Positions 1,359 through 40,089 of a stretch of 64,000 nucleotides of DNA are shown piece by piece (within the stretch, counting starts at the first letter, position 1; each line of letters opens with the position of its first letter). The position numbers and the translations under genes were made by a program. The stretch is from an uncultured Leptospirales bacterium. GTDB taxonomy: Bacteria; Spirochaetota; UBA4802; UBA5550. The stretch covers positions 222,089 to 286,088 of the forward strand of contig CAZGWD010000002.1 in NCBI GenBank assembly GCA_964529415.1. The letters are read 5' to 3'. Under the pieces are notes generated by a model that was not told the origin of the DNA, did no database searches, and saw only the letters and a program-made list of their open reading frames with translations.

Positions 1359-1380
1359 TTAGTTCCTGATTTTAGCCGTA

Positions 1381-2670: not shown

Positions 2671-2680
2671 TTTTTTTATT

Positions 2681-3658: not shown

Positions 3659-3686
3659 ATATTTTTCCTTTAAAAAATAAGTTATT

Positions 3687-4454: not shown

Positions 4455-4475
4455 ATAATCCAGGTTAACCTTGAT

Positions 4476-7970: not shown

Positions 7971-8044
7971 CACGCCCGGCAGGAGTCGAACCTGCGACGC
8001 ACGGATTCGAAGTCCGACGCTCTATCCAACTGAGCTACGGGCGC
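7971..8044 (-). tRNA. tRNA-Arg, anticodon read as UCG
   Basis: Reverse complement GCGCCCGTAGCTCAGTTGGATAGAGCGTCGGACTTCGAATCCGTGCGTCGCAGGTTCGACTCCTGCCGGGCGTG folds as a cloverleaf with 7-bp acceptor, D-arm, anticodon loop CTTCGAA and T-loop TTCGACT. The 5' end resembles E. coli tRNA-Arg. Confidence 0.8.
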
Positions 8045-14044: not shown

Positions 14045-15400
<1,356 letters not shown>

Positions 15401-25148: not shown

Positions 25149-26978
25149 GTGAAAATGAAAATTATACTATTTCTTCTGATGATAATAGCTGCCGCATCGA
25201 AACCGCTGCTGTCCCAGCCTGTAATCATTTCCGATTCTGCTGAAAATTACAGTTTATGGGACCACGTATATATATTTGTAGATAAACAAGGGGATTTTCC
25301 CCTGGAAAAACTGATTAATGCTGATTGGGTTAAAAATGACAGAAAAATGATCCAGTTCGGAATATCAGGCAATACATACTGGTTTAAATTTACAGTAAAT
25401 AACAGGCTTTCAAAAAATCTGAAATTCTATCTCGACACTAATGATACACAGACGGAAATTCTTGAACTGTATCAGTATGATAAAAACGGCATGAAACTGC
25501 TCCAGAAAGCAGGAAGATATCACCCTGAATCATTCAGAAACTGGAACAGGCCCGAAATTATAATTACTCCGCCATCCGGTGAAACTGTTTACTTCCTCAA
25601 AGCGCAAAGCAGTTCTTATATTACATTTGACCTTATTTTGAGAACGCCGATTGACTTTTATAAAAGCATTGCGCGGTCTGCCATTTTTTACGGCGCGTAT
25701 TTTTCAATTTTAATAGTAATGATTTTATACAACCTGCTGCTTTTTTTCGGACTCAGAAGCAGAACTTATGCACTTTATGTTCTGTATCTGTTAGCTATTT
25801 TCGGACAGATGTTTTTCGGGGAAGGTTTCGGGGTGCTTTTTCTGAATGAGGGATACAGGTCAGTATATTCGGTAATGGTATTAAATACAGCTCTGCTGTT
25901 CATGTCTTCTTTTTTTGATAACAGGAAAAAAAATCCCGTTCTTTATAAAATCACATATATTCTGATTGCGGTTACAACACTTTACGGAGCGGTATCATTT
26001 TTTATACAGCCACATAGAATTGACTTTTTCATCACCGGCAGCATAGTTTCGCCTGCTGCTTTTATATTCGTTATAGTAAACTGCATAATTGCGCTGCGGC
26101 AGGGCAATCCGTCAGCAAAATATTTCATTATCGGCTGGTTCGGTCTTATGTTTTTCAGCAGCCTGTATCTGGGTGTTACATCGGAAATACTGCCTGCAAA
26201 TTTTCTGACACTTAACGGCCTGGCAATTGGTACTGTTTTCGAAACTGTAATACTGTCCCTTGCGCTTGCACAGCAGGTGAATACTTCCAGAAAGGAAAAA
26301 GAGGAAGCAGACAGGAAAAGCATTGATCATAAAAACAGGATTATTGCATCAATATCACGTTTTGTTCCAATGCAGTTTGTAAGCTTCCTTGGCAAAGAAA
26401 GCATCATTGACATCAAGCTCGGAGACCAGGTTCACAAGGAAATGACTATTCTTTTCTCGGACATCAGGTCTTTTACAAGTCTTTCTGAACATCAGACTCC
26501 GCAGGAGACTATAGATTTTTTAAATTCATATTTCATGAGCATTGGGCCACTCATAAGAAAAAACAACGGCTTTATCGATAAATACATTGGTGATGCGATC
26601 ATGGCTTTATTTCCCAATAAAGTAGACGATGCAATAATGGCTGCAGTCAACATGATTGAGCAGCTGCATGAGTACAACAAGATCAGAGAATTAACCGGCC
26701 AGGAGCAGATTAATATCGGCATAGGTATTCATACAGGTAATCTCATGCTTGGAACAATCGGCGAGTCAAGCAGGATTGAGGCAACAGTAATTTCTGATGC
26801 AGTAAATACTGCATCGAGGCTTGAACATCTGAATAAAAAATTAAACACCAAGATACTCATTTCAAAGGAAAGCCTGGAAAAATCCGATCGCCGTTCAGAA
26901 TTTAATACAAGAAAGATCGGTCGGGTTGCAATAAGGGGAAAGGAAGATCATTTGGTTGTTTATGAAATATTAACTTGA
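25149..26978 (+). CDS. 7TMR-DISM receptor fused to a class III adenylate/guanylate cyclase
   Basis: Signal peptide, 7TMR-DISMED2-like ectodomain (GNTYWFKFTVNN), 7 TM segments, and a cyclase domain FSDIRSFTSLSE...GDAIMALF. Confidence 0.8.
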   Translation: MKMKIILFLLMIIAAASKPLLSQPVIISDSAENYSLWDHVYIFVDKQGDFPLEKLINADWVKNDRKMIQFGISGNTYWFKFTVNNRLSKNLKFYLDTNDTQTEILELYQYDKNGMKLLQKAGRYHPESFRNWNRPEIIITPPSGETVYFLKAQSSSYITFDLILRTPIDFYKSIARSAIFYGAYFSILIVMILYNLLLFFGLRSRTYALYVLYLLAIFGQMFFGEGFGVLFLNEGYRSVYSVMVLNTALLFMSSFFDNRKKNPVLYKITYILIAVTTLYGAVSFFIQPHRIDFFITGSIVSPAAFIFVIVNCIIALRQGNPSAKYFIIGWFGLMFFSSLYLGVTSEILPANFLTLNGLAIGTVFETVILSLALAQQVNTSRKEKEEADRKSIDHKNRIIASISRFVPMQFVSFLGKESIIDIKLGDQVHKEMTILFSDIRSFTSLSEHQTPQETIDFLNSYFMSIGPLIRKNNGFIDKYIGDAIMALFPNKVDDAIMAAVNMIEQLHEYNKIRELTGQEQINIGIGIHTGNLMLGTIGESSRIEATVISDAVNTASRLEHLNKKLNTKILISKESLEKSDRRSEFNTRKIGRVAIRGKEDHLVVYEILT

Positions 26979-26998
26979 GGTAATCTTTTTACTCATTT

Positions 26999-27088
26999 TA
27001 GAAAAGTCCGATAAAAAACAGAAAGCTTTGCCAAGCCGCATAGCGATTTAAGTTATAAGCTGAAAGCAGCTATAATTCTTAACATCCC
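26999..27088 (+). repeat. Copy B (degenerate) of the ~105-nt intergenic element
   Basis: AGAAAAGTCCGATAAAAAACAG ... GAAAGCAGCTATAATTCTTAACATCC. The right terminus is partly deleted. Confidence 0.5.
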
Positions 27089-27216
27089 CTCTTCTATCAG
27101 CTGGATAAAAATTATATTTTATACTTATTAAAATAATTTGAAAAAAGCACTACAGTAACACCTCTCATTTTTTTAAAATTTCTAAAAAAAAATCCAATTT
27201 TAATTGACAAATTTTC

Positions 27217-27252
27217 TATATACTACCAAATAGATCTTATTGGTAGTATATA
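27217..27252. promoter_or_regulatory. Perfect 13-bp inverted repeat with a 10-bp spacer, a candidate operator upstream of the sulfur-carrier operon
   Basis: TATATACTACCAA-atagatctta-TTGGTAGTATATA lies ~100 nt upstream of the 27354 start, adjacent to a TTGACA hexamer at 27205. Confidence 0.5.
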
Positions 27253-27353
27253 TTTTACTTTAATTCAATATGAATTATACGCTCTATTCTATAATTATAT
27301 GAATATGATAATTTTTTCTATGTTAATATGATCAAAAACAAACTGGAGGAATC

Positions 27354-27566
27354 ATGAAAATAACACTAAACGGGGAATCAAAAAGTATAGATAAGCCATA
27401 CAAATCTCTTCTGCACTTGTTAAAAGAAAGCGATGTGCAGAACCCTGATCTGGTTTCCGTTCAGCTAAACGGCCAATTTGTTGAAAAGTCATTATTTGAA
27501 TCAACAAATATCAAAGAAAATGATGAAATTGACTTTTTATACTTTATGGGCGGGGGTGCTTCATGA
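27354..27566 (+). CDS. ThiS/MoaD-fold sulfur-carrier protein (HcyS/CysO-like) with a C-terminal extension beyond Gly-Gly
   Basis: 70-aa beta-grasp-sized protein ending ...FMGGGAS. It is translationally coupled to the sulfhydrylase and sits in an operon with an E1 and a JAMM protease. Confidence 0.7.
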   Translation: MKITLNGESKSIDKPYKSLLHLLKESDVQNPDLVSVQLNGQFVEKSLFESTNIKENDEIDFLYFMGGGAS

Positions 27567-28795
27567 ACGGATTTACCACCAGGGCTGTTCACGGGTTTTC
27601 TCTGAAAAAAGATCCTCATGGCTCGCTTAGGATGCCGGTGTATGACAATGCTGCTTTTGAAATCGGCAGCTCAAGAGACCTTGAACTTGCCTTTGCCGGT
27701 AAAAAAGCAGCTCACGCCTATTCCCGGATAACCAACCCGACAGTAGAAGACTTTGAACAGAGGGTCCGGATTCTCACAGGCGCATTTGGTGTAATTGCTG
27801 TTTCCTCAGGCATGGCAGCAATAACAAATACTATAATGACACTTGCCCAAAAAGGCTCAAATATTGTTACTTCGCGATTCCTTTTCGGTCATTCCATTTC
27901 GCTTTTTGAAACTACTCTTAAACGCTGGGGCCTTGAAACCCGTTATGTTGATATGCTTGATCTTTCTGCAGTTAAAAATGCAATAGATGATAAAACAAGC
28001 CTCATATTTCTTGAAGTTATAACCAATCCGCAGCTGGAAATAGCAGATTTAAAAGCCATATCATCTGCTGCATCTGATAGAAATATACCTGTGGTACTTG
28101 ACGGCACTCTCACAACTCCTTACATGATCCGTTCCAAAGACTTTGGCATTGCAGTTGAAATAATTTCCAGCACAAAGTACATGTCCGGAGGCGCAACTTC
28201 AGTTGGCGGCCTGATAATAGACAATGGAATTTTCAACTGGAGTAAATCTCCGCTTCTTGCAGATGATGCTGTACGAGTCGGTCCTGGTTCTCTCATCATG
28301 AGGCTGCGGCGCGAGGTTTACCGCAATTTCGGCGCCTGCCTCTCTCCGCATAATGCATGGCTGCAGGCACTGGGTCTCGAAACAATGGCTCTCCGGATAG
28401 AACGAAGCTGCAAAAACGCCCTTGCCCTTGCAGTATTTCTAAAGGGCCATACTAAGATAAAAAGCGTCAATTATCCCGGTCTGCCGGATTCCCCATTTCA
28501 TGAAATTGCTCAGCGCCAATTCAACAATCTCTTCGGAGGAATTTTGACATTTGAACTCGAGGGCAAGAATGAAAGTTTTCAATTGATGGATTCGCTCCAG
28601 CTGATAAAACGCGCTACAAATTTAAACGATAACAAATCACTGATAATCCATCCGGCTTCAACCATTTTTGCTGATAATACGATTGAGGAAAAAGCAGGAA
28701 TGAAGGTGAGTGAAGGACTAATCCGGCTATCTGCAGGAATTGAAGACATTGATGATATAATAAACGACCTTAAACAGGGACTGGAAAAATTATGA
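27563..28795 (+). CDS. metY: O-acetylhomoserine/O-acetylserine sulfhydrylase (MetY-type, Cys/Met-metabolism PLP enzyme)
   Basis: TRAVHGF...RITNPTVEDFEQRV...SSGMAAI and the PLP-lysine region SSTKYMSGG; 410 aa. Confidence 0.8.
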   Translation: MNGFTTRAVHGFSLKKDPHGSLRMPVYDNAAFEIGSSRDLELAFAGKKAAHAYSRITNPTVEDFEQRVRILTGAFGVIAVSSGMAAITNTIMTLAQKGSNIVTSRFLFGHSISLFETTLKRWGLETRYVDMLDLSAVKNAIDDKTSLIFLEVITNPQLEIADLKAISSAASDRNIPVVLDGTLTTPYMIRSKDFGIAVEIISSTKYMSGGATSVGGLIIDNGIFNWSKSPLLADDAVRVGPGSLIMRLRREVYRNFGACLSPHNAWLQALGLETMALRIERSCKNALALAVFLKGHTKIKSVNYPGLPDSPFHEIAQRQFNNLFGGILTFELEGKNESFQLMDSLQLIKRATNLNDNKSLIIHPASTIFADNTIEEKAGMKVSEGLIRLSAGIEDIDDIINDLKQGLEKL

Positions 28796-29607
28796 GAGAA
28801 TTTACAGAAGATCAGCTTGAAAGATACAGCCGCCACATTTTATTGAAAGATGTTGGAGTTGAAGGACAGGAACGCATCATGAATTCCAAGGTGCTTATTA
28901 TAGGAGCCGGCGGACTCGGAGCTCCTGCAGCCCTTTATCTTGCAGCAGCCGGCGTCGGCACTATTGGAATAGCTGACGGGGATGATGTTGATCTTTCCAA
29001 TCTTCAGCGCCAGATAATTCATTTTACTGAAGATGTCGGCACGTCAAAGGCAAATTCCGCTGAAAATAAAATACGCGCATTAAATCCGGATGTAACAGTA
29101 AAAACCTACCATGAATTTGTGATGGCCCGCAATATCCGCGGCCTGATTCATGGGTATGATTTTATTATAGACGGTACTGACAATTTCGCAACAAAATTCC
29201 TTATCAATGACGCCTGTGTAATGGAAAATATTCCATACTCTCATGGCGGTATATTGAAATTCACCGGCCAGACCATGACAGTTATACCTCACGCTTCTGC
29301 CTGCTATAGATGCGTTTTCCAGGCTCCGCCTCCCAAAAATGCAGTACCTACCTGTTCACAGGCCGGAGTTCTTGGAGCAATAGCAGGAATGCTTGGAACC
29401 ATACAGGCTGCTGAAGCGCTGAAATACGTGGCAAAAATAGGCAAACCTCTTACAGATTCGCTTTTAACATTTGATGCACTGGGCATGGATTTCAGAAAAG
29501 TTCCGTTACGCAAAAGGGATAATTGTCAAATTTGCGGATCTTCTCCGACAATTTTCCAACTTGCAGACGAAGAACAGGCTGCCTGCGATCTTAAAACCAA
29601 AGCATAA
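28792..29607 (+). CDS. ThiF/MoeB/HcyF-type E1-like adenylyltransferase (no rhodanese domain)
   Basis: LIIGAGGLGAPAALYLAAAGVG nucleotide-binding motif and CxxC zinc motifs (CYRC, CQIC); 271 aa. Confidence 0.85.
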   Translation: MREFTEDQLERYSRHILLKDVGVEGQERIMNSKVLIIGAGGLGAPAALYLAAAGVGTIGIADGDDVDLSNLQRQIIHFTEDVGTSKANSAENKIRALNPDVTVKTYHEFVMARNIRGLIHGYDFIIDGTDNFATKFLINDACVMENIPYSHGGILKFTGQTMTVIPHASACYRCVFQAPPPKNAVPTCSQAGVLGAIAGMLGTIQAAEALKYVAKIGKPLTDSLLTFDALGMDFRKVPLRKRDNCQICGSSPTIFQLADEEQAACDLKTKA

Positions 29608-29617
29608 GGAGAATGAC

Positions 29618-30025
29618 ATGCTGCGAATAGCTAAAACAGTAATAGACGGAATGATATCGCACTCAAAAAAAGATGCACCAATAGAGGCTTGCGGTTATTG
29701 CGCTGAGTCAAGCGGCATAATTGATGCCTGGTTTCCCCTGACCAATACAGACGGCTCTCACGAGCATTTTTCGCTTGATCCGGCAGAGCAGTTTGTCTGC
29801 ATAAAAAAAATCAGGTCTCAGGGCAGGAGGCTTGCTGCTGTTTATCACAGCCATCCTGAAACTCCATCCCGGCCTTCTGCAGAAGATATAGCCCTTGCAG
29901 CAGATCCTGACATTAGCTATGTGATCGTTTCACTTGCAAACAATGAATCAACTGTTAAGTCATTCAAGATACGGAACAGCATTGCTGTTGAGGAATCGAT
30001 TGAGATAACAGGAGATATCAGATGA
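29618..30025 (+). CDS. JAMM/MPN+ metalloprotease (Mec+/HcyD-like)
   Basis: E..(ACG)...HSHPETPSRPSAEDI JAMM motif. The start was set to the ATG at 29618, which follows an AGGAG and the ThiF stop. The track ORF's upstream part overlaps thiF. Confidence 0.8.
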   Translation: MLRIAKTVIDGMISHSKKDAPIEACGYCAESSGIIDAWFPLTNTDGSHEHFSLDPAEQFVCIKKIRSQGRRLAAVYHSHPETPSRPSAEDIALAADPDISYVIVSLANNESTVKSFKIRNSIAVEESIEITGDIR

Positions 30026-32355
30026 CATCATACGAAATTCCAGTCACCCTTGCAGGTGAAATCAACGATCTTGAAAAATATATTGAGGCATTTGCCAGCA
30101 ATAAAATATCAGACACTGAACTTAAAGCAAGACGGGTTCCTTTCGGGATATACGAGCAGAGAACAAAAGGAACATATATGATGCGGGTCAGATGTTCAGC
30201 AGGGATTATTACACCTGGTCAGCTTTTACGCGTATCAGAGCTTTCCAAGAAGTTCACACCTGGAATTCTTCATATTAGCACCAGGCAGGAAATCCAGATT
30301 CATGACGTAAAGCTGAATGATATTGTTTCTATTTTAAATGAATTATTACGTGCCGGATTATCAACCAGAGGCGGCGGAGGAAACACTGTCCGCAATATTA
30401 CTGCATCATGGGATTCAGGCATTTCCAAAAACGAGGTTTTCGATGTTCATCCCTACGCAGTCGCTCTTACAACTAAATTGACAGCATTGCCGAATTCATG
30501 GCTGATGCCGCGAAAATTCAAGATCGCTTTTTCAAACAATCCGGATGATACAGCATTTGCAACTGTTACAGATGTTGGATTCATTGCAGCTGAAAAAAAC
30601 GGCGTGCACGGATTCAGGGTATATGTAGCTGGAGGACTCGGCAGAATGCCTGAAAGAGGCCATCTGCTTCATGACTTTATTCCTGCAGGCGAATTTTTTG
30701 CTGTAGCTGAATCAGTAAAGCGCCTCTTTTCTATTTACGGTAACAGAAAAAATAAACATAGCGCCAGATTAAGATTTCTCTGGAAAACTCTTGGACGCGA
30801 AAAATTTACAGAAAAATACAACGAAATCAGGACTGACCTGCAAAAAAATGAAATCACATCTCTTCCGGTGATTCCAATTAAAAATGAATCCGTCAGGCAT
30901 ACAGCAGCAGTTTCCGGATCTGTATTATCATCTGAATTTGATTTCTGGAAAAAATATTATGTATATGAACAAAAACAGGCAGGCGCAGTTTCAGTTAAAA
31001 TCCCGATTCAATCCGGCATGATAAGCGCAGACAAAATGATTTTACTTGCAAAACACATTGAAGAGTATGGCGAGAATACAATCCGGTTTACATTAGACCA
31101 GAACATTACTCTTCGCAATATTCCTGAAGCGAATTTAGAATCTCTCTTTTCAGTTATAAAAAAAATCACCGGTCTTGCTGTCAAGGCTCCCTTTTTTGGA
31201 AATGCCGTTGCCTGTGCAGGAGCAAGCACCTGCCAGCTCGGTATCTGTTTATCGCGCGGTGCTCTCAATGCAGTATATGACCGTCTGCTATCATCAGATA
31301 TTGCAGCGGATACTCTTGCAGGGATAAAGCTTAATATTTCAGGATGCCCAAATTCCTGCGGCCAGCATCAGATTTCAGATATAGGATTCTTCGGCAAAGC
31401 ATCACGCATGGGAGAGCATTCTTATCCTGCATATTCTATTGTTGCCGGTTCCAGAATTTCAGCTGACAAGACTGTGCTTGCAGAAAAAATAGATGAAATA
31501 AGCGCTCATGACCTGCCGGTATTTCTGGAGGATATCTTCAGGGAGTATGAAAAGAGCGCAGCAAATTATAATTCATTCACAGATTATATTGAAGCGGAAG
31601 GAAAAGATGCTATAAAAAAAACAGCCGGTTCATACAGGCCTATACCGGATTTTGCTGAAAATAAAAATTACTATTTCGACTGGGGATCGGAAACAAAATT
31701 CTCCGTTACAGGACGGGGAACCGGCGAATGCGCTTCAGGTGTTTTTGATATTATCGATATAGACAGGAAGCATATGGAATCCCTTGAAAAGTCAATAGAA
31801 TCATCCCCGACAGAAGATTCCGTTTATGCGCTTGTTCTGGCTGCTTCAAGAATGCTTCTTGTGACCAGAGGCATTGACACTTCATCTGAAAATGAAATAT
31901 TCTCTGAGTTTAAAAAGCAGTTTATAGAATCCGGTCTGGTTGGAATTCATTATTCTGAAATTATAGATAAAGCAGCCAGCAATGACAGGAGCGGTCTGTT
32001 TGCTGCCAGAAATTCAGTTTTATCTCTCTCTCAGGATATGAATAAATTATATGCAACACTTGATGACTCATTGCAGTTCCATACCGCACATGCATTAAAA
32101 ACAGAATCCCTGGAAAACAGGAATCCGCCTGTTCCGGATCAGACTAAGGATCTTAGAGGCGTTGCCTGCCCTATGAATTTTGTTAAAACCAAAATAGCTT
32201 TATCCTCAATGAAATCCGGAGAACTGCTCGAGGTACTTCTTGATAACGGAGCGCCGATAGAAAATGTTCCAAAATCCGTGGAACTTGAGGGTCATAAAAT
32301 AGCGGCGCAGGAACCAAAAGACGGATTCTGGTCTGTTCTGATCAGGAAGGCCTGA
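30022..32355 (+). CDS. Ferredoxin-type sulfite/nitrite reductase (siroheme-[4Fe-4S]) fused to a C-terminal TusA-like sulfur-relay domain
   Basis: Nitrite/sulfite-reductase half-domains and the cluster-ligand Cys motifs CAGASTCQLGIC and GCPNSCGQH. The C-terminus reads LRGVACPMNFVKTKI...GELLEVLLDNGAPIENVP (TusA/SirA-like, conserved Cys). An uncharacterised ~150-aa segment lies between them; 777 aa overall. Confidence 0.75.
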   Translation: MTSYEIPVTLAGEINDLEKYIEAFASNKISDTELKARRVPFGIYEQRTKGTYMMRVRCSAGIITPGQLLRVSELSKKFTPGILHISTRQEIQIHDVKLNDIVSILNELLRAGLSTRGGGGNTVRNITASWDSGISKNEVFDVHPYAVALTTKLTALPNSWLMPRKFKIAFSNNPDDTAFATVTDVGFIAAEKNGVHGFRVYVAGGLGRMPERGHLLHDFIPAGEFFAVAESVKRLFSIYGNRKNKHSARLRFLWKTLGREKFTEKYNEIRTDLQKNEITSLPVIPIKNESVRHTAAVSGSVLSSEFDFWKKYYVYEQKQAGAVSVKIPIQSGMISADKMILLAKHIEEYGENTIRFTLDQNITLRNIPEANLESLFSVIKKITGLAVKAPFFGNAVACAGASTCQLGICLSRGALNAVYDRLLSSDIAADTLAGIKLNISGCPNSCGQHQISDIGFFGKASRMGEHSYPAYSIVAGSRISADKTVLAEKIDEISAHDLPVFLEDIFREYEKSAANYNSFTDYIEAEGKDAIKKTAGSYRPIPDFAENKNYYFDWGSETKFSVTGRGTGECASGVFDIIDIDRKHMESLEKSIESSPTEDSVYALVLAASRMLLVTRGIDTSSENEIFSEFKKQFIESGLVGIHYSEIIDKAASNDRSGLFAARNSVLSLSQDMNKLYATLDDSLQFHTAHALKTESLENRNPPVPDQTKDLRGVACPMNFVKTKIALSSMKSGELLEVLLDNGAPIENVPKSVELEGHKIAAQEPKDGFWSVLIRKA

Positions 32356-32357
32356 CC

Positions 32358-32588
32358 ATGAAGGAAAAGCATTATCGAAGTATTGTCAAAGGATTTTCAT
32401 ACCGGATATTCGGGACAATGGCAACTATAAGCATTTCATATGCAGCAACAGGAAATTCCGGAACAGCCCTTTCAATCGGATTAGCTGATGTGGCAGTAAA
32501 GGTTGCCATCTATTACTTTCATGAACGTGCATGGAATAAAATTCCACTCGGAAAAATAAAAGCGAAACAGGATGATTATCAAATATAG
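32358..32588 (+). CDS. DUF2061-family small membrane protein
   Basis: 76 aa, KGFSYRIFGTMATISISYAATGN; I recall this family as often adjacent to cysH. Confidence 0.55.
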   Translation: MKEKHYRSIVKGFSYRIFGTMATISISYAATGNSGTALSIGLADVAVKVAIYYFHERAWNKIPLGKIKAKQDDYQI

Positions 32589-32597
32589 AGGTGTACC

Positions 32598-33311
32598 ATG
32601 ACTGCAGAAATAGAAAAATATAAAGAGGAAGTAAGGAATCTGAATGCAGAGGCAATAATTGCCTGGGCTCTGGACACATTCGGGCAATCCAGACTGGTTC
32701 TTGCCTCAAGCATGAGTGCCGAGGACCAGTTGCTGACGCATCTGCTTCTATCCTACAACAATCAATCACGGATATTTACCCTTGATACCGGAAGGCTTTT
32801 TCAGGAGACTTATGATACCATGCAAAAAACCATAGAACGCTATAATTTCTGTTACGAAATTTATGCACCTGAAAACAGTGCTGTTGAATCCCTTGTTGCT
32901 GTACACGGTCCGAATCTGTTTTATAAAAACGTTGAGCTTAGAAAAAAATGCTGTACTGCAAGAAAGACGATCCCCCTGCAACGTGTTCTTAAAACTGCGG
33001 ATGCATGGATTTGCGGACTACGAAGGGACCAGGCTGTAACACGGGATTACATAGAACCGGTTGAGTTTGACCATGAGAATAAACTATTCAAAATAAATCC
33101 ACTTTACAATTGGTCTGAACAGATGGTTTGGGATTCTGTTAAAAGTCTCAGCATCCCCTATAATCCCCTGCAGGATAACGGGTTCCGCAGCATTGGTTGC
33201 GCTCCATGCACACGGGCAATTGGCAGGAATGATGATGTCCGTTCAGGAAGATGGTGGTGGGAAGATCCGGAACACAAGGAGTGCGGATTGCACGCCAAAC
33301 CAAAAACGTAA
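32598..33311 (+). CDS. cysH: Adenylyl-sulfate (APS) reductase, thioredoxin-dependent, Fe-S type
   Basis: PAPS/APS-reductase fold with the cluster cysteines KKCC and CAPC plus the catalytic ECGLH motif; 237 aa. Confidence 0.85.
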   Translation: MTAEIEKYKEEVRNLNAEAIIAWALDTFGQSRLVLASSMSAEDQLLTHLLLSYNNQSRIFTLDTGRLFQETYDTMQKTIERYNFCYEIYAPENSAVESLVAVHGPNLFYKNVELRKKCCTARKTIPLQRVLKTADAWICGLRRDQAVTRDYIEPVEFDHENKLFKINPLYNWSEQMVWDSVKSLSIPYNPLQDNGFRSIGCAPCTRAIGRNDDVRSGRWWWEDPEHKECGLHAKPKT

Positions 33312-33349
33312 ATCACGGATTATAAAGAAATTAAAATTTAAACAGAGAT

Positions 33350-34243
33350 ATGGAAACTAAAATGGATAACTTAGAAAAACTTGAATCAAAAAGCATTTAT
33401 ATTCTACGGGAAGCATACAGGGAATTTAAAAACCTATGCATGCTCTGGTCTATAGGCAAGGACAGCACAGTTCTGTTATGGCTTGCGAGAAAAGCTTTTT
33501 TTGGACATGTGCCGCTGCCGCTTGTGCATATTGACACACATTTTAAAATTCCCGAGATGATTGAATACCGCGACAGGCTCGCACTCGACTGGAATCTTAA
33601 CATGGTTTACGGAGAAAACAGCGAGGCGCTGAAAAACAAACTTACTTTTCCGGATAAAAACGCAGACCGCCTTACCTGCTGCAAGAATCTAAAGAGCGAG
33701 GCTCTCAAGCATACTCTTTCAGGAGACTGGCCCAGATACAGGATGGATCATGCAAAGCGCGAATATGTGCCTGATTCAAACAGGGAACCATATACCGGAG
33801 TAATAGTGGGTGTCCGGGCTGATGAGGAAGGAAGCCGTTCAAAGGAGAGGTACTTTTCTCCGCGCGACAGGGAGAATGAATGGAATGTCGGCGATCAGCC
33901 TCCGGAGCTATGGAATCAGTTTAAAACTGATTTTGCGCCAGGCACGCACCTTCGCATACACCCCCTTCTTGACTGGACCGAACTAAACATATGGGAGTAT
34001 ATCGAAAGGGAAAAGATCCCTACAGTATCTTTATATTACGATCAGGGGACTGGCAAACGGTACAGATCACTCGGTTGCTACCCATGCACAAATTCAGTTG
34101 AGTCCGGCGCAAAAAATGCTGCGGATATAATTCTGGAGCTGAAAAGCGGAAAATTTGCAAACATAGCAGAACGTTCAGGCCGAGCACAGGATAAAGAAGA
34201 TGGCGGCGGATTGGAAGCACTCAGAAAAGAAGGATACATGTAA
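33350..34243 (+). CDS. cysD: Sulfate adenylyltransferase subunit 2
   Basis: PP-loop [18 protein letters not shown]; 297 aa. Confidence 0.9.
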
Positions 34244-34342
34244 ATTAAATTTAACAGCAGGCAGATGTGATGATTAACAATACCGATGAATCTTTTTAAT
34301 CATTAATCATCAGCCAAATTATTGCAGATAGAGGAAAATACA

Positions 34343-36130
34343 ATGCGTGAACAGATGAATATAGTAGTAGTAGGACATGTTGACCACGGCAAAAGCACTG
34401 TTATAGGAAGACTACTCGCTGATACCGGCTCGCTTCCTGAAGGAAAACTTGAGCAGGTAAAGCAGACCTGCGAGCGGAATGCACGGCCGTTTGAATATGC
34501 TTTTCTTCTCGATGCCCTTAAGGATGAACAGTCCCAGGGTATAACAATTGACACAGCAAGATGCTTTTTTAAATCCGCAACGCGCGATTACATTATCATA
34601 GATGCCCCAGGGCATGTGGAATTTCTTAAAAACATGATCAGCGGAGCTGCCCGCGCTGAAGCTGCGCTTCTTGTTATAGACGCTAACGAAGGAATCCAGG
34701 AAAATTCAAAACGCCACGGTTATCTTTTGTCCATGCTTGGCATTAAGCAGATTGCAGTGCTTGTAAATAAAATGGATCTTGTCGGCTACAGCAAAAAAGT
34801 TTTTGAATCAGTATGCGGGGAATATGATCTGTTTCTTTCAAAACTTGGATTGCGTCCGGCTGCCTATATACCAATAAGCGCGCGCGATGGCGAAAATCTG
34901 ACAAATGCTGCTGCTGCAATGAAATGGTATAGCGGCAATACAGTTCTTGGCCACATTGATAATTTCACCAGACAGGATGATATCTCTCACAAGCCGTTCA
35001 GATTTCCGGTGCAGGATGTTTACAAATTTACTGAAGCCCTTGACGACCGCCGCATAATTGCAGGTACAGTTGAAACCGGAACAATATCTGTTAATGATAA
35101 AGTCATCTTTCACCCATCCGGTAAAAGATCAGAGATTGTATCGATTGAAGGATTCAATGTGCCGACGCAAACATCTGCCGGTCCGGGTGCAGCAACAGGC
35201 TTTACAATCAAAGATGAGCTGTATCTCCAAAGGGGTGAAGTAATGTGCAGAATTGATGATGAACAGCCTGCAGTCTATTCCCGTTTCAGGGCAAATGTAT
35301 TCTGGATGGGGAACTCACCTATGGTCAAGGGAATAAAATATAAACTTAAAATCGCGACAGCGCGGGTATCAGTCCGGCTTGTTAATATTATTTCAAGCAT
35401 AGATGCAACCGACCTGAGCACATCTTCCGGCAAGCAGCAGATAGACAGGCATGATGTTGCTGAATGCATTTTCGAAACTACAAGGCCGATCGCCTTTGAT
35501 AATATCTCAAACATACAATCCATGGGCAGATTTGTAATAGTCGACAACTATGATATTGCCGGAGGAGGAATCATCACTAATAGCGAAAGCAGCGATGAAG
35601 CGCTTTTTTCAGAACAGATAAAAAAAAGGGAACAGGAGTGGGACAAGGGTTTTGTTACAATCAATGACAGGGAAAACATGTTCAAGCATAAAGCCAAATT
35701 CATTGTTCTTACAGGAACCAAACGCAGCAATGATATTGCCAAACATCTCGAGCGAACGTTATTCAGCAAAAACCATATCTCCTATTACCTGAGCCTTGCA
35801 AATCTGGAAGGCGGTCTTGACAGCGATGTTGTTGATGAGCAGGACAAACGGGATGAGAGGATCCGCCGTCTTGGAGAGCTTGCCCGTATTTTAACGGATG
35901 CAGGAACAATTTTCATTACAGCCATCACTGATGCAAATTCATATGATCTGGATATTTTATCAAGGCTGACATCTCCAAATGAGTTCCTGCATGTTTCTCT
36001 CGGCAGAGAGGTTGAATCAAGCAATGTCAATCACCTTTCACTCGATGAGGACTCCCCTGCTGAACAGCTGACCGGGGCCATTCTTCAGAGTCTGGCCATG
36101 CAGGAAATCATACCCGAGTATTCGATATGA
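34343..36130 (+). CDS. cysN: Sulfate adenylyltransferase subunit 1 (GTPase) with a C-terminal degenerate APS-kinase-like domain
   Basis: [10 protein letters not shown]1 motif, DAPGH and NKMD. The C-terminal ~150 aa resemble APS kinase ([25 protein letters not shown]) but lack the GxxGxGKS P-loop (LTGTKRSND). The start is the ATG at 34343, after GAGGAAAA. Confidence 0.85.
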
Positions 36131-37287
36131 AATCATTTATGCCAGTATGCCTCAATGTCGCAGATTCACGTATTGTGATAATCGGCGGCGGCAAAGTAGC
36201 CCTGCAGAAACTGCAGACAATAATATTATTTTCAGATAAAATTTCTGTATACGCCGGTACTATTCTTGATGAAATTAAAGAACTCAATGTAAGCTGCCAT
36301 GAAAAAGAATACGCTTCTGAATACATTGAAGATGCAATGCTCGTATATGCCTGTACTGACAATGCAGCTTTAAATAGAAGGATTCTTGATGATTGCCGCA
36401 AAACAGGGACTCCCGCCAATATTGCTGATGCGCCGGAACTTTGTGATTTTATATCTCCGGCACTTTTTAAAAAAGGAAACATGAGTGTGGCAGTAAGCTC
36501 CAACGGTGAAGATGCAAAAAAATCTGTAGCGTGGAGGAACATGTTAAGGAGATTTCTAAGCGGCGTTTTACAAAAAGAATCTATTGCTCTGAATTCAGCA
36601 GGAAAAGTGTGGCTTGTCGGAGCCGGGCCTGGTGATCCCGATCTTCTAACAATTAAGGCAGATAAAATCCTCTCCATGGCTGATGTCATTTATTTTGATG
36701 ATCTCCTTGATGACTCCTTTCAAAAACGTTATTCAGCGGAATTTGTGTATGTCGGAAAACGAAAAGGCAGCAACTGCATAACCCAGGAGGAAATCAGCGA
36801 ACAGCTTTATCAGGCTTCAAAATCAGGAAAAATAGTTGTGAGACTCAAGGGAGGAGATCCGCTGATCTTCTCCAGAGGCGGAGAGGAGCTTGATTATCTG
36901 CAGAGCCGGGGAGTTAAAGTTGAGGTTGTCCCGGGAATAAGCGCGTTTCAGGCAGCAGCTGCATCCCAGAAAATACCTCTCTCCCACAGGGGCATATCCA
37001 GAACAATTGGTATTGCATCCGGCCACTATGCCAAAGACGATGATATCCCGGCACTTGCAGCTGACACTGCTGTTTATTATATGGCTTCAACCAAACTAAA
37101 GGAGCTGCAGGCATCTCTTCTGCGCGGAGGAAGAAGCCCTGAAATTCCGGTTGCCCTTATAAGAAATGCAAGCCTCCCTGATGAACAGGTCTGCAGAACT
37201 ACTTTAAAAGATATGGCAGATATAACCATGGCCTCGCCTCTTATAATAATTATAGGGAATTCTGCAAATAATGCCGGTTTTTCCTGA
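36127..37287 (+). CDS. cysG: Siroheme synthase (precorrin-2 dehydrogenase/sirohydrochlorin ferrochelatase N-domain plus uroporphyrinogen-III C-methyltransferase C-domain)
   Basis: N-terminal [14 protein letters not shown] Rossmann fold; C-terminal [22 protein letters not shown] signature; 386 aa. Confidence 0.85.
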
Positions 37288-37457
37288 AAAAGATCTATTT
37301 AAAACAACAGGAAAACAATCTTCCTATTTAAAAAGTTATTGACTATGATCAGATTTTAAATATATTATTAATTAAGGTTGTTTTTTAAATAAATAAATTT
37401 TTTAATTATTTTAAACTTTTCAAATGAAGAATCGGGTTTTACCGATGAATATATTTA

Positions 37458-38198
37458 ATGGAGAAGATTATGAAAAAAATACTATTCTTCTTTTTATTAT
37501 ACAGCGCTCTTTTTACTTTTAATACAGCCTATGCTGAAATCAGGGTTGTAATGGTTAAAGGCGAGGCTGCATTAAAAATAGGCCGCAACTGGGCTCCTCT
37601 TGCCATCGGGCAGGTATTATATGAAGGATCAGTCATAAGTACCGGAGCAAATTCATATATCAAACTGAAAATAGATGCTCATGATATGACAATTAAACCT
37701 CTTACTACAATTAAGATTTTTAAAAACCAGACCACCTATGGAAAAAACCTTACAAATATCGGACTAAAATACGGCGGTGTATCAGCCAAAGTTAATAAAA
37801 TGGGCACGCTTAAAACAAATTTTAATATAGCAACTCCTGTAGCAACTTCTTCTGTAAGGGGTACTGAAAAGGAAATCAGCTACGGCTCCTCAACAGGCAT
37901 GAAGGTTAATGTCATTGAAAGCATAGTGCGGGTTCACAACAAATCTGGCGTGGACCGCAGTGCTCAGTCTAACAGCGGTTTTTCACAGAAAGCCGGCTCT
38001 CCGCGGCCAGACAGCCCTGCATCAAACACTAAAGCCAAAGCTCTTGCCAGGATTGCTCCGGATGGTCTTTCAAATGAAGAGGTCGAATCTGCAAATAATT
38101 CAACAGACAGCAATCCAAAAGATATTCAGGAACAGATGGATTCGCTTTTCATGGGAAAAGGATCAACAAAAATTAAATTCAATCTTGTTTGGCCGTAA
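37458..38198 (+). CDS. Secreted FecR-like domain protein
   Basis: Signal peptide plus ...IATPVATSSVRGTEK, similar to the 16814 protein. It lies upstream of the CHASE2 cyclase. Confidence 0.5.
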   Translation: MEKIMKKILFFFLLYSALFTFNTAYAEIRVVMVKGEAALKIGRNWAPLAIGQVLYEGSVISTGANSYIKLKIDAHDMTIKPLTTIKIFKNQTTYGKNLTNIGLKYGGVSAKVNKMGTLKTNFNIATPVATSSVRGTEKEISYGSSTGMKVNVIESIVRVHNKSGVDRSAQSNSGFSQKAGSPRPDSPASNTKAKALARIAPDGLSNEEVESANNSTDSNPKDIQEQMDSLFMGKGSTKIKFNLVWP

Positions 38199-38223
38199 AA
38201 TCCGAATCAGGGGCTGAAATAAA

Positions 38224-38712
38224 ATGAACAGAAAAATTCGTTACTTGATTATCAGCAGTATAGTTTTTTTCAGCAGTGTGATGCTCCTTGCGCAACCCTT
38301 CTCCGGTGTAGCTTTCATTAATGACTTATCTGAAAAAGAATTTGCAACTGTCAGTGATGCAGCTGCATTCACAGTCATGATAACCGGCAACGCACCTGGC
38401 GACTATAATTACAATATTTTAATTCTGAAAAAAATCGGGCTGCCTGTTGAAAAACTGACGAATCCGAAAAAAACTCTTACACGCAGCGACGTGGCGCGTC
38501 TCATTGCAAAACTTCTGAATCTTGATGACTCACTGATGTACCTGATTACAAGATCAGGCACATATGCTGTAACTGCATGCAAGGCTGCAGGAATTATCAC
38601 TGGCGCAGGCGGAGCAGACATGCCTGTATCAGGCGGCGAGCTGATTGATATAATGAATGCTGCAGCACACTTTCTTGAAGCTAAAGCAAACCAGGCTTCG
38701 GCAAAAAGGTAA
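38224..38712 (+). CDS. Hypothetical secreted protein
   Basis: 162-aa ORF with an N-terminal signal sequence. Confidence 0.4.
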   Translation: MNRKIRYLIISSIVFFSSVMLLAQPFSGVAFINDLSEKEFATVSDAAAFTVMITGNAPGDYNYNILILKKIGLPVEKLTNPKKTLTRSDVARLIAKLLNLDDSLMYLITRSGTYAVTACKAAGIITGAGGADMPVSGGELIDIMNAAAHFLEAKANQASAKR

Positions 38713-38715
38713 AAA

Positions 38716-40089
38716 ATGAAAATATCAATAAGGAAAATAATTTTAATAATAACCCTGATAATATGCGGAGTAAACCTATATGCTCAAACCGGTCCTATCG
38801 ACAGAAGCGAAGAGGCTTTTTATCCGGATTTTTATAAGGATGAGGATATAAAATCCGCAGCTGTCAGGCATGATGTCCCGCATTTTACATGGGGAGGCTG
38901 GCTCACTCCTGCATTTATTGATATAAGAGAAAACAGTAAAGTTCTCTCGATTCCGTCTCTGACAGTTCGATTGTGGGGAAATTTTTCCCTGCAGCGGAAT
39001 ATATTTTTTTATCTCAGGTTAAAGGATACATTCTCGGTTTCCGCGGTGAATACACTTTTGCCAGGCACAGTTCCGGACAATTCCCGGTTTGAAAGATCTT
39101 CATATATTGCTGAAAAGGGAATTGTATCAAATGTGACTGAGATTGCGGACCTGGCTTATGTCTCTGCAACAACAGAGGATAAAAAAGCTGCAATTCAGTT
39201 CGGAAGAAAGTTTTTTATTCTTGGAACAGGCCTTATTTTAAACAGCAGGGGCGACGGCATTGATGTGAATATTTACACAAAAGCAATTGATATTGAGCTG
39301 CTATCATTTTACACAGGGCTGATACCTGCTGCTTCAAACCCCTATAACCTCACAAGCCGGGATTTATCTCTTGGGTCTGCACGCGCATTTGCCGGTCTCC
39401 GTTTAAGCAAAGATATTGAAAGCCACAATCTGTATACGATTGTTCTGGGACAGTATGATTATGCACCATCCGATCAGTTTCATACTCTGCATGCAGGGCT
39501 GGGCGTAAAAGGCGTTTTCCTGGGCTCTCTGGAATATCAGGGTGAATTTTTTTACCAGTATGGAATGAAAACAGTAAACGGAGTATTGAATAATTTTAAT
39601 GCAATCAGCGCATTGGCAAATATAAATTATTATTTCAGAGTTATGCTAAAGCCTGCAATACTTTTTCAGTATGCATATGGATCAGGAACAAAACCGAACA
39701 GCGCAATTGTGAACGGGTTTGATTATTTTGGATTATATAACGGAGGCACGGCGCTTCGTCCGAAACTGAACAATATTCACATACTTCGCGCTGGTGCTTC
39801 ATTCGTTCCTACTGACACGATTCCGGTTAAACAGTTAAACAGGCTGACCTTAATGGCCAAGTACAGCTTTTACATGAAAGACAACCTCGACACTGATGCG
39901 GGCGGGGGAATCGGTGCAACTGTCGGCAAAATTCCTATAGGCCATGGATTGGATTTTTCCATGACCTGGATTATTTTTCAGGATCTCTCATTCTTTACAA
40001 GTTTCGGACTTTTCTTTCCTGGAGATGCAATGCCTTCAACTGAATCAAACAGAAGCTCTTTCATTGCAGCATTGAATTTCGCTTTTTAA
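38716..40089 (+). CDS. Hypothetical outer-membrane (beta-barrel-like) protein
   Basis: Signal peptide, alternating amphipathic segments, C-terminal ...LNFAF. Confidence 0.4.
   Translation: MKISIRKIILIITLIICGVNLYAQTGPIDRSEEAFYPDFYKDEDIKSAAVRHDVPHFTWGGWLTPAFIDIRENSKVLSIPSLTVRLWGNFSLQRNIFFYLRLKDTFSVSAVNTLLPGTVPDNSRFERSSYIAEKGIVSNVTEIADLAYVSATTEDKKAAIQFGRKFFILGTGLILNSRGDGIDVNIYTKAIDIELLSFYTGLIPAASNPYNLTSRDLSLGSARAFAGLRLSKDIESHNLYTIVLGQYDYAPSDQFHTLHAGLGVKGVFLGSLEYQGEFFYQYGMKTVNGVLNNFNAISALANINYYFRVMLKPAILFQYAYGSGTKPNSAIVNGFDYFGLYNGGTALRPKLNNIHILRAGASFVPTDTIPVKQLNRLTLMAKYSFYMKDNLDTDAGGGIGATVGKIPIGHGLDFSMTWIIFQDLSFFTSFGLFFPGDAMPSTESNRSSFIAALNFAF

Follow-up and report, generated by a model that had tools for sequence, protein, structure and literature searches.

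A ten-gene array with a probable protein-thiocarboxylate route from sulfate to homocysteine in an uncultured Leptospirales bacterium

The thiocarboxylate-dependent methionine pathway of Wolinella succinogenes (HcyS/MetY/HcyF/HcyD) was reportedly characterised in 2011 by Krishnamoorthy and Begley in JACS, and the structure of its MetY (3RI6) is attributed to Tran et al. (2011). This operon type had been predicted and catalogued in 2006, in an entry that lists Wolinella (PMC1779556, Table 1, row 4e). There, the E1 enzyme always lacks a rhodanese domain, a SirA protein is always present, and sulfate ABC transporters and an active APS kinase are frequent members (PMC1779556). A cysteine pathway with CysO, CysM, Mec+ and MoeZ operates in Mycobacterium tuberculosis (Burns et al. 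2005, as cited in PMC6225789), and a Streptomyces route with MetO, MetM, Mec and MoeZ starts from O-phosphohomoserine (Hasebe et al. 2024, as summarised in the GapMind 2026 preprint, 10.1101/2024.10.14.618325).

We analysed a 64-kb stretch of DNA (the window) from an uncultured Leptospirales bacterium, in which an earlier note had described four coupled genes of the Wolinella kind, followed directly on the same strand by genes of sulfate reduction. All four ORFs were recovered at the coordinates below, and the downstream genes were identified as a sulfite reductase (SiR), DUF2061, CysH, CysD, CysN and CysG. The features are as follows.

27216..27253, plus strand: inverted repeat, candidate operator, CTATATACTACCAA-N10-TTGGTAGTATATAT, within the 375-bp region 5' of the operon
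27354-27566, plus strand: carrier gene, 70 aa, ThiS fold
27563-28795, plus strand: metY, 410 aa, MetY-type PLP sulfhydrylase
28792-29607, plus strand: E1 gene, 271 aa, rhodanese-less ThiF/MoeB
29618-30025, plus strand: JAMM gene, 135 aa, JAMM/MPN+ zinc metalloprotease
30022..31641, plus strand: catalytic part of the sulfite reductase, residues 1-540 (NIR_SIR 2.1e-39, NIR_SIR_ferr 2.7e-31)
31720..32055, plus strand: HEPN-like four-helix bundle between reductase and TusA, SiR residues ~567-678
32143..32352, plus strand: TusA/SirA sulfur-transfer domain at the SiR C-terminus, residues 708-777, active-site Cys716 (ACPMN)
32358..32588, plus strand: DUF2061, small predicted membrane protein, 76 aa (Pfam DUF2061 4.2e-20)
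32598..33311, plus strand: CysH, APS-reductase type (PRK02090, 251 bits)
33350..34243, plus strand: CysD, sulfate adenylyltransferase small subunit (NF003587, 344.9 bits)
34343..36130, plus strand: CysN GTPase subunit with C-terminal APS-kinase-like domain (PRK05506, 427 bits)
36127..37287, plus strand: CysG-like siroheme synthase, last gene of the array (TP_methylase 1.9e-50, NAD_binding_7 5.3e-27, PRK10637 326.8 bits)

The ten genes form a tight plus-strand array in the order carrier, MetY, E1, JAMM, SiR-TusA, DUF2061, CysH, CysD, CysN and CysG, ending at 37287. Reading the junctions in the sequence revealed ATGA overlaps between carrier and metY (4 nt), metY and E1, JAMM and SiR, and also cysN and cysG, while E1 and JAMM are separated by a 10-nt gap; the claimed coupling of the first four genes thus holds. 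No strong internal terminator was found in the array, and from gene spacing alone we infer its co-transcription. The carrier gene has a GGAGG ribosome-binding site 6 nt 5' of its ATG. For the JAMM gene, the likely start is ATG 29618, preceded by an AAGGAG ribosome-binding site and also picked by a gene caller on an identical contig; a 184-aa ORF from TTG 29471 was considered less likely. Upstream, the 14-nt arms of the inverted repeat differ by one mismatch. The repeat is not retained in front of the carrier genes of related loci, and its link with the operon is uncertain. An Rfam search of the 375-bp upstream region returned no riboswitch, methionine- and SAM-responsive classes included, and no other family, so that nothing there ties regulation to methionine.

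Profile searches, which the earlier note had proposed, supported all four of its assignments: the 70-aa beta-grasp carrier matched Pfam ThiS (E 6e-10; TIGR01683 with 54.9 bits against a cut-off of 37.45), the Cys/Met-family PLP sulfhydrylase Cys_Met_Meta_PP (PF01053, E 3.9e-107), the E1 ThiF (E 1.5e-82) and the JAMM protease Prok-JAB (E 1.5e-18). These E-values, together with an identical gene order in dozens of unrelated genomes, exclude chance. The sulfhydrylase is a fold-type I PLP enzyme, and its PLP-binding Lys205 (SSTKY) is invariant in alignment A1. Among solved structures, its top match was the W. succinogenes MetY 3RI6 (E 8.9e-142, 475.8 bits, 53% identity), followed by an ordinary MetY with 279.5 bits. 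By its sequence, the enzyme belongs to the thiocarboxylate-dependent (Wolinella) O-acetylhomoserine sulfhydrylase subfamily. The proposed match to the HcyS/HcyD/HcyF/MetY system was borne out by this score, the intact motifs and the conserved gene order. Both loci combine the same four families, residues past the Gly-Gly of the carrier, a rhodanese-less E1, an intact JAMM motif and a setting of sulfate-assimilation and SirA/TusA genes. The differences are that the host is uncultured, that the carrier tail is Ala-Ser in place of the single Ala of Wolinella, and possibly also that the HEPN-like domain joins TusA to the sulfite reductase here.

With the operon type catalogued in 2006, the composition agrees component for component, except that no sulfate transporter is present in this operon and that the APS-kinase-like domain of CysN is degenerate: direct reading revealed the loss of the P-loop, and Pfam APS_kinase matched with 33.5 bits over profile positions 4-82 of 152. 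CysH carries the motifs CC118-119, CAPC201-204 and ECGLH and scored 235.1 bits against TIGR02055 (APS_reductase), whose cut-off is 235.3.

The note had also drawn an analogy to the mycobacterial CysO/CysM/MoeZ system, which shares the carrier thiocarboxylate, a PLP enzyme forming a carrier-amino-acid adduct and release by a JAMM hydrolase. This analogy fails on two defining features: the mycobacterial PLP enzyme is a PALP-family CysM of fold-type II that acts with O-phosphoserine, and the E1 has a C-terminal rhodanese domain, whereas the locus studied here has a fold-type I MetY, a rhodanese-less E1 and a TusA instead. Membership in the mycobacterial type was rejected, the PLP enzyme giving no PALP match and the E1 no rhodanese match in the Pfam search. 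The Streptomyces route, as far as the preprint summarises it, likewise yields homocysteine from a carrier thiocarboxylate with a JAMM-type hydrolase involved, but its MetM is a threonine-synthase homologue, whereas MetY adjoins the carrier here. The note's thrC-hom pair was indeed found on the minus strand at 14045-16672, ~11-13 kb upstream of the four-gene module. The thrC-like gene (14045-15391) lies beside hom with no carrier adjacent and passes the ThrC equivalog TIGR00260 (209 bits, cut-off 167.1); as this is the sole ThrC-like gene and lies ~12 kb off, membership in the Streptomyces type was rejected as well.

Scored against NCBIfam equivalogs, MetY remained under every cut-off, so that its substrate (O-acetyl-, O-succinyl- or O-phosphohomoserine, or O-acetylserine) is not fixed by sequence. 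The top model was TIGR01326, 'O-acetylhomoserine aminocarboxypropyltransferase/cysteine synthase' (378.6 bits, under its cut-off). This bifunctional model would be compatible with a module that makes cysteine, or both cysteine and homocysteine, if the MetY-type enzyme took O-acetylserine or O-phosphoserine as a functional analogue of CysO/CysM/Mec+; so would the fact that the window revealed neither cysK nor cysM nor cysE, while the sulfate-reduction pathway is encoded in full by the operon. The window covers 64 kb of genome, however, and cysK may lie elsewhere. Moreover, as a fold-type I enzyme (PF01053), the MetY stands outside the PALP family of CysM, the E1 lacks the rhodanese domain of MoeZ, and no other characterised enzyme comes nearly as close to this MetY as that of Wolinella, which forms homocysteine. 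We thus regard cysteine formation as quite improbable and expect homocysteine, not cysteine, as the product.

The carrier belongs to the ThiS/MoaD beta-grasp family, with 2K5P/3CWI as top solved structure (49 bits, same FLYFMGGG motif). Its C-terminus reads FLYFMGGG-AS, i.e., Gly67-Gly68 followed by a two-residue Ala-Ser tail, and 65 of the 66 unfused carriers adjoining this MetY subfamily show the same kind of end (FLYFMGGG/GG plus 1-5 extra residues). Such a predicted Gly-Gly-plus-tail end calls for a JAMM protease. The JAMM protein matched the solved structure 2KKS with 98.7 bits, and its motif is complete (E23 and H77-S-H79-x7-S87-x2-D90); across 65 homologues, the conservation of its catalytic residues is 95% or more. 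The E1 displays GAGGLG (38-43), SNLQRQ, DGTDN and the Zn-binding pairs CYRC (171-174) and CQIC (245-248), all conserved in 67 sequences, besides a crossover-loop Cys188 and an invariant Cys265 in the C-terminal tail; the tail motif EQxxC[DE]L occurred in 64 of 64 sequences having a C-terminus. Against the MoeZ model NF005902, only profile positions 14-272 of 392 were covered (294 bits, cut-off 647).

Carrier and E1 could also be read as a thiamin (ThiS/ThiF) or molybdopterin (MoaD/MoeB) pair that merely neighbours sulfur genes, given that the carrier passes TIGR01683, that the E1 scores above the cut-off of the MoeB subfamily model NF004281 (269.9 versus 266 bits) and that E. coli ThiF (1ZFN) is its top solved structure (202 bits). 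Genuine ThiS and MoaD, however, terminate exactly at Gly-Gly, while the carrier has the Ala-Ser tail and an adjacent JAMM gene. JAB genes are absent from thiamin and molybdenum cofactor operons (PMC1779556), no thiG, thiH, thiO or moaE was present among the window ORFs scanned, and the 4-nt overlap with metY and the pairing conserved across phyla also speak against this reading, which we consider highly improbable. Because the TIGR01683 equivalog cut-off is passed, carriers of this kind are routinely annotated 'ThiS'. Even less probable, and in our view barely credible, is a ubiquitin-like conjugation or anti-phage system (SAMP/UbaA-, Bil- or CBASS Cap2/Cap3-like), in which JAMM would release the carrier from target proteins to which it had been conjugated. 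It is true that the SAMP-activating UbaA model matched the E1 (320 bits) and the desampylase model matched the JAMM (65 bits), each under its cut-off, and that the E1 core matched PADLOC E1-E2 models. Yet these PADLOC matches reached at most 65 bits over ~120 residues of the Rossmann core only, PADLOC returned nothing for the carrier and just a marginal match for the JAMM (19 bits), an E2 is lacking both as a domain and as a gene, and the conserved partners (MetY, TusA, SiR) are metabolic.

A genome scan for MetY relatives (E <= 1e-3) yielded at least 594 stretches encoding one, a count that may include ordinary MetY. We surveyed the neighbourhoods in the best 80 species genomes among the matches listed, covering more than 12 named groups. 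Of these 80 genomes, 68 had the carrier immediately 5' of MetY, 72 had the E1 immediately 3' of it, and 69 had the JAMM downstream; the comparative genomics suggested in the note thus revealed a gene order kept across phyla. Among the matches listed, the nearest MetY relatives were named Chitinivibrionales, Chitinispirillales or Fibrobacterota. Lys205 of MetY, the GxGGxG motif, both CxxC pairs and the loop Cys of E1, the E...HxHx7Sx2D motif of JAMM and the Cys-Pro of TusA were all conserved to at least 95%. Carrier, MetY, E1, JAMM and TusA form a five-gene core with a wide distribution and tight conservation. DUF2061 was found in 12 of the 80 loci, either right after SiR/TusA or beside CysH-CysD genes. 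The gene cluster is common across many anaerobic bacterial phyla, and the locus is an ordinary addition to a known system. The note's description of this behaviour as rare is contradicted by these counts, and also by the history of the system, which is not rare because the operon type was predicted in 2006 and reportedly characterised in 2011.

The same survey bears on the sulfur donor. Wolinella MetY uses the carrier-protein thiocarboxylate, and the MetY family overall uses bisulfide (PMC8191291). The latter, together with the few subfamily members that have no adjacent carrier (e.g., loci L007, L016, L023, L025 and L074), would be compatible with a MetY that mainly uses free sulfide, with carrier, E1 and JAMM as an auxiliary scavenging or protective branch (very low sulfide, oxidative protection). 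A dispensable carrier is hard to reconcile, however, with its position 5' of MetY in most of the loci surveyed and its occasional fusion to the MetY N-terminus (two loci and protein P0050), and the subfamily is clearly apart from ordinary MetY (476 versus 279 bits). Such a branch therefore appears distinctly unlikely.

The sulfite reductase was classified from its sequence as NirA-type, ferredoxin-dependent-like and assimilatory. It carries the siroheme/[4Fe-4S] cysteines in CAGASTC (398-404) and CPNSC (442-446) and scored up to 146 bits against solved nitrite and sulfite reductases. An invariant Glu569-Cys570 marks the start of the HEPN-like bundle, and the SiR-HEPN-TusA fusion recurs in a Helicobacter sp. 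fragment (P0216). TusA is a conserved fifth component overlooked in the earlier note. It was present in at least 56 of 59 related loci with enough sequence (~95%), 3' of the JAMM gene, also where the sulfite reductase is absent, suggesting that TusA, not the reductase, is the obligatory fifth component.

Taken together, the ten genes very probably constitute a sulfate-to-homocysteine operon around a protein-thiocarboxylate carrier, orthologous to W. succinogenes HcyS/MetY/HcyF/HcyD. From the observed gene content, order, coupling, subfamily assignment and catalytic-motif conservation, a pathway can be proposed whose chemistry is transferred throughout by homology, following what Krishnamoorthy and Begley reportedly described in 2011. 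CysD and CysN would make APS, which the APS-type CysH would convert to sulfite, and the siroheme sulfite reductase would reduce the latter, with siroheme supplied by CysG. The JAMM protease would remove Ala69-Ser70 of the carrier, exposing Gly-Gly-COOH, and the rhodanese-less E1 with ATP would adenylate this carboxylate. Displacement of AMP by reduced sulfur, from bisulfide or, more speculatively, from the persulfide of the fused TusA, would give carrier-COSH. MetY would then add the thiocarboxylate to the PLP-bound vinylglycine intermediate formed from O-acetylhomoserine, an S-to-N acyl shift would lead to the carrier-homocysteine amide, and JAMM would cleave the amide to homocysteine and regenerated carrier. 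Neither a homoserine O-acyltransferase (metX/metA) nor a methionine synthase was found within the window, so that the window shows neither the source of the substrate nor the last step.

The note predicts fixation of sulfide in protein-bound instead of free form, which goes beyond what can be read from these genes; free bisulfide was reportedly the sulfur source in the Wolinella work in vitro. As a tentative and rather unlikely extension, SiR may not release free sulfide at all: its conserved C-terminal extension, with the invariant Cys570 and TusA Cys716, might accept siroheme-site sulfur in the form of a persulfide or trisulfide bound to the protein and pass it to the carrier acyl-adenylate on E1, where the invariant Cys188 and Cys265 would resolve an acyl-disulfide, so that sulfur would be channelled from sulfite to homocysteine wholly on proteins. 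DsrC takes up sulfur in this way for the dissimilatory DsrAB.

The genes of such loci are routinely mislabelled ThiS, MoeB/ThiF, 'PLP-dependent transferase' or 'M67 peptidase', and this homocysteine route is consequently missed when metabolism is reconstructed from Fibrobacterota-like MAGs and those of many other anaerobes. As of 2017, neither KEGG nor MetaCyc included the pathway (PMC5764234). New biochemistry may remain in TusA, the HEPN-like linker and the invariant cysteines on reductase and E1, a part of the system relevant to the form in which assimilatory sulfite reduction hands over its sulfur, as sulfide or as sulfane sulfur bound to protein. The wide distribution and tight conservation of the five-gene core make this route one of the major ways of bringing sulfur into methionine, and no exotic one.

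Six-frame ORF calling with Pfam and NCBIfam bore out the four plus-strand genes at 27354-30025 that the earlier note had read as a thiocarboxylate sulfur-carrier module, and profile HMM searches matched all four families (ThiS, Cys_Met_Meta_PP, ThiF and Prok-JAB). As that note had also described, the genes are tightly coupled: ATGA overlaps join carrier to MetY, MetY to E1 and JAMM to the sulfite reductase (SiR), and a gap of 10 nt separates E1 from JAMM. The sulfate-assimilation genes SiR, CysH, CysD, CysN and CysG follow on the same strand through 37287, and the thrC-hom pair named in that note was found as well.

Features of the sulfur operon and its surroundings (window positions)
14045-16672, minus strand: threonine synthase and homoserine dehydrogenase with ACT domain
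27216-27253: nearly perfect inverted repeat CTATATACTACCAA-N10-TTGGTAGTATATAT in the AT-rich promoter region, about 100-140 nt upstream of the carrier start codon
27354-27566, plus strand: carrier, 70 aa (six-frame ORF; Pfam ThiS, E 6e-10)
27563-28795, plus strand: MetY, 410 aa (Pfam Cys_Met_Meta_PP, E 3.9e-107)
28792-29607, plus strand: E1, 271 aa, without rhodanese domain (Pfam ThiF, E 1.5e-82)
29618-30025, plus strand: JAMM protease, 135 aa (Prok-JAB, E 1.5e-18)
30022-32355, plus strand: NirA-type sulfite reductase with C-terminal TusA domain, 777 aa (Pfam/NCBIfam)
32358-32588, plus strand: DUF2061 predicted membrane protein, 76 aa, between SiR and cysH
32598-33311, plus strand: CysH (Pfam/NCBIfam)
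33350-34243, plus strand: CysD (Pfam/NCBIfam)
about 34343-36130, plus strand: CysN with C-terminal APS-kinase-like domain (Pfam/NCBIfam)
36127-37287, plus strand: CysG (Pfam/NCBIfam)

The most probable start codon of the JAMM gene is the ATG at 29618, with AAGGAG as its ribosome-binding site and a product of 135 aa; a gene call made independently on an identical contig picked the same start. A promoter/terminator consensus scan of 26800-37700 gave nothing decisive: no convincing internal terminator was found, and a weak hairpin 3′ of cysG was the sole terminator-like signal.

The subfamily assignment rests mainly on MetY. Its match to 3RI6, the O-acetylhomoserine sulfhydrylase of Wolinella succinogenes, reached 475.8 bits (E 8.9e-142, 53% identity over 407 residues), whereas the solved structures of ordinary MetY (8sf5, 7kb0) scored about 279 bits. 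The Wolinella enzyme is atypical in taking its sulfur from a carrier protein that bears a thiocarboxylate at its C-terminus (PMC8191291). Among solved structures, the carrier best matched 2K5P/3CWI (49 bits), the C-terminus FLYFMGGG being common to both, and it scored 54.9 bits against TIGR01683 (cut-off 37.45; NCBIfam). The top match of the JAMM protein was 2KKS (98.7 bits), and that of E1 was E. coli ThiF (202 bits), with an aligned region that takes in the crossover-loop cysteine. Direct reading located Gly67-Gly68 followed by Ala-Ser at the carrier C-terminus; the catalytic Lys205 of MetY in SSTKY; GAGGLG (38-43), SNLQRQ, DGTDN, CYRC (171-174), CQIC (245-248) and Cys188 in E1; and Glu23 and H77-x-H79-x7-S87-x2-D90 in JAMM. 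The siroheme/[4Fe-4S] cysteines of the reductase lie in CAGASTC and CPNSC, and its TusA cysteine is Cys716. In homologue alignments, all catalytic residues were conserved to at least 95%. The locus fits every sequence-testable defining feature of the Wolinella-type system (HcyS/MetY/HcyF/HcyD), and the subfamily score, the motifs and the synteny together support the module proposed in the earlier note.

Sequence models suggested that carrier and E1 might instead form a thiamin or molybdopterin sulfur-carrier pair. Four features contradict this reading: the carrier ends in Ala-Ser, a JAMM gene is present, carrier and metY overlap by 4 nt, and synteny is conserved. Thiamin and MoCo operons, moreover, lack JAB genes (PMC1779556). 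The mycobacterial-type cysteine route, to which the earlier note had drawn an analogy, fails because the PLP fold is the wrong one and E1 lacks the rhodanese domain. Likewise, the Streptomyces MetO/MetM route fails, as the synthase encoded here is MetY. The thrC-like gene was considered as a disguised MetM, but its score exceeds the cut-off of the ThrC equivalog model and no carrier gene lies beside it; this reading was rejected. A ubiquitin-like conjugation or defence system was rejected, since no E2 accompanies the E1 and PADLOC returned generic E1-core matches only.

In a protein search, MetY homologues ran into the thousands; the closest of those with a name belong to Chitinivibrionales, Chitinispirillales and Fibrobacter (62-69% identity), with others from KSB1, Latescibacter, Desulfobacterota and Terriglobales. 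An identical MetY protein is encoded in two Logan assemblies and on a 291-kb NCBI contig. When one genome per species was scanned, at least 594 stretches encoded a relative of this MetY at E <= 1e-3, a number that may include ordinary MetY. Six-frame ORFs of the best 80 of these loci (51-64% identity) were searched with the window proteins. Their record names cover Fibrobacterota, Desulfobacterota, Acidobacteriota, Chlorobi, Omnitrophota, Planctomycetota, Spirochaetota, Calditrichota, Elusimicrobia, SAR324, Verrucomicrobia, Bacteroidetes and others. Across these best 80 loci the gene order is kept: the gene immediately before MetY encodes the carrier in 68, the one immediately after it encodes E1 in 72, and JAMM comes next in 69. 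The complete order of the window through CysN also occurs in Fibrobacterota, one Lambdaproteobacteria MAG and one SAR324 MAG. All but one of 66 unfused carriers in this set (65/66) share the C-terminal motif [DE]FLYFMGGG, followed by 1-5 variable residues. TusA, encoded either separately or as part of SiR, comes 3′ of the JAMM gene in 56 or more of the 59 loci with enough sequence (54 scored and two read-through cases), and SiR itself was present in only 35/80. DUF2061, whose gene begins 2 nt past the reductase stop codon in the window, was found in 12/80 loci, either directly after SiR/TusA or otherwise beside cysH-cysD. In seven loci (L041, L050, L059, L067, L075, L076 and L077; several Omnitrophota, Planctomycetota, Spirochaetales and related loci), a protein of about 290 aa encoded between the JAMM gene and a free-standing TusA gene replaces the full-length reductase. 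It matched sulfite reductase weakly (43-67 bits) and may represent a small sulfite-reductase-like protein.

Carrier and MetY are sometimes fused (carrier N-terminal; FMGGG-linker-MetY), as observed in L062 (9788-11221) and L073 (9773-11230), loci of an Omnitrophota and a Spirochaetota MAG, and in the metagenomic protein P0050 (477 aa). With the carrier fused to the MetY N-terminus, its release would have to depend on cleavage by the JAMM protease. Free sulfide is an unlikely main substrate of MetY, since such a role is hard to reconcile with these fusions and with the carrier gene lying next to metY almost everywhere.

By homology, a carrier-bound route to homocysteine is predicted from the genes present, their coupling, the subfamilies to which they belong and the conservation of their motifs. 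Sulfate would be reduced via APS and sulfite; the carrier would be trimmed by the JAMM protease, adenylated by E1 and converted to the thiocarboxylate; MetY would couple the latter to O-acetylhomoserine; and the same JAMM protease would free homocysteine. This order of chemical steps is reportedly that described for Wolinella by Krishnamoorthy & Begley in 2011. Secondary sources point to Krishnamoorthy & Begley 2011 for exactly this pathway. CysH carries the APS-reductase cluster motif CC...CxxC, and the APS-kinase-like domain of CysN (35699-36130) matches only half of the Pfam profile and has lost the P-loop where GLSGSGKST is expected. The route thus most likely proceeds via APS, not PAPS, and both features suggest that the CysN domain is kinase-dead and perhaps regulatory. 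By homology, such an APS-kinase-like domain was also detected in 15 related loci. Among the scanned window ORFs of at least 120 aa, none encoded metX/metA, metE/metH, cysK/cysE or a sulfate transporter. A complete early tetrapyrrole operon is located at 321-6669 on the minus strand (glutamyl-tRNA reductase, porphobilinogen deaminase, uroporphyrinogen-III synthase, ALA dehydratase, HemL-like class-III aminotransferase and uroporphyrinogen decarboxylase); from about 20 kb away, it would provide the CysG of the sulfur operon with uroporphyrinogen III.

The inverted repeat at 27216-27253 looks like an operator and is an unexplained local feature. As a conserved operator it was rejected: seven Fibrobacterota relatives do not conserve it, only 3 of the loci tested carry its half-site TTGGTAG upstream of the carrier gene, and no regulator gene adjoins it. 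An Rfam gathering scan of the whole window revealed no riboswitch or leader RNA 5′ of the operon and only a tRNA (7971-8044); an E-value scan of 26950-27400 gave only a chance snoRNA match (E 0.63). Large sensors flank the operon, namely a 7TMR-DISM adenylate/guanylate cyclase, a CHASE2 cyclase and a 7TMR-DISM HD-domain protein (25149-26978, 40123-42723 and 49711-52182), and FecR-like and alginate-export-like outer-membrane proteins are encoded directly downstream (37458-40089). No tie between these flanking genes and the sulfur operon was evident.

Beyond its second CxxC, E1 has a tail that is absent from E. coli ThiF. It bears the motif EQxxC[DE]L, and its Cys265 (AACDL, residues 263-267, 29578-29592) was present in 64/64 homologues with a C-terminus. 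This residue could act as a mobile sulfur-relay or resolving cysteine in place of the MoeZ/Uba4 rhodanese domain. The C-terminal 257 residues of the reductase, modelled from a 43-sequence alignment (mean pLDDT 84.7), contain invariant Glu569-Cys570 and TusA Cys716-Pro717. SirA has been proposed to stand in for the missing rhodanese domain (Iyer et al., PMC1779556), and a 2026 paper claims zero-valent sulfur as the product of assimilatory sulfite reductases (PMC13188885). Together with the invariant cysteines, these proposals permit, without demonstrating it, a relay in which protein-bound persulfide passes from the reductase to the carrier via the TusA, HEPN-like and E1-tail cysteines, a reading that we regard as improbable.

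The rarity claimed in the earlier note found no support in the comparison of loci. The operon type reportedly received biochemical characterisation in 2011. It had already appeared in the 2006 listing by Iyer, Burroughs & Aravind (PMC1779556). The system is therefore known and widespread, and is found here in a lineage where it was previously unstudied; the modest upside would lie in the cysteine relay.
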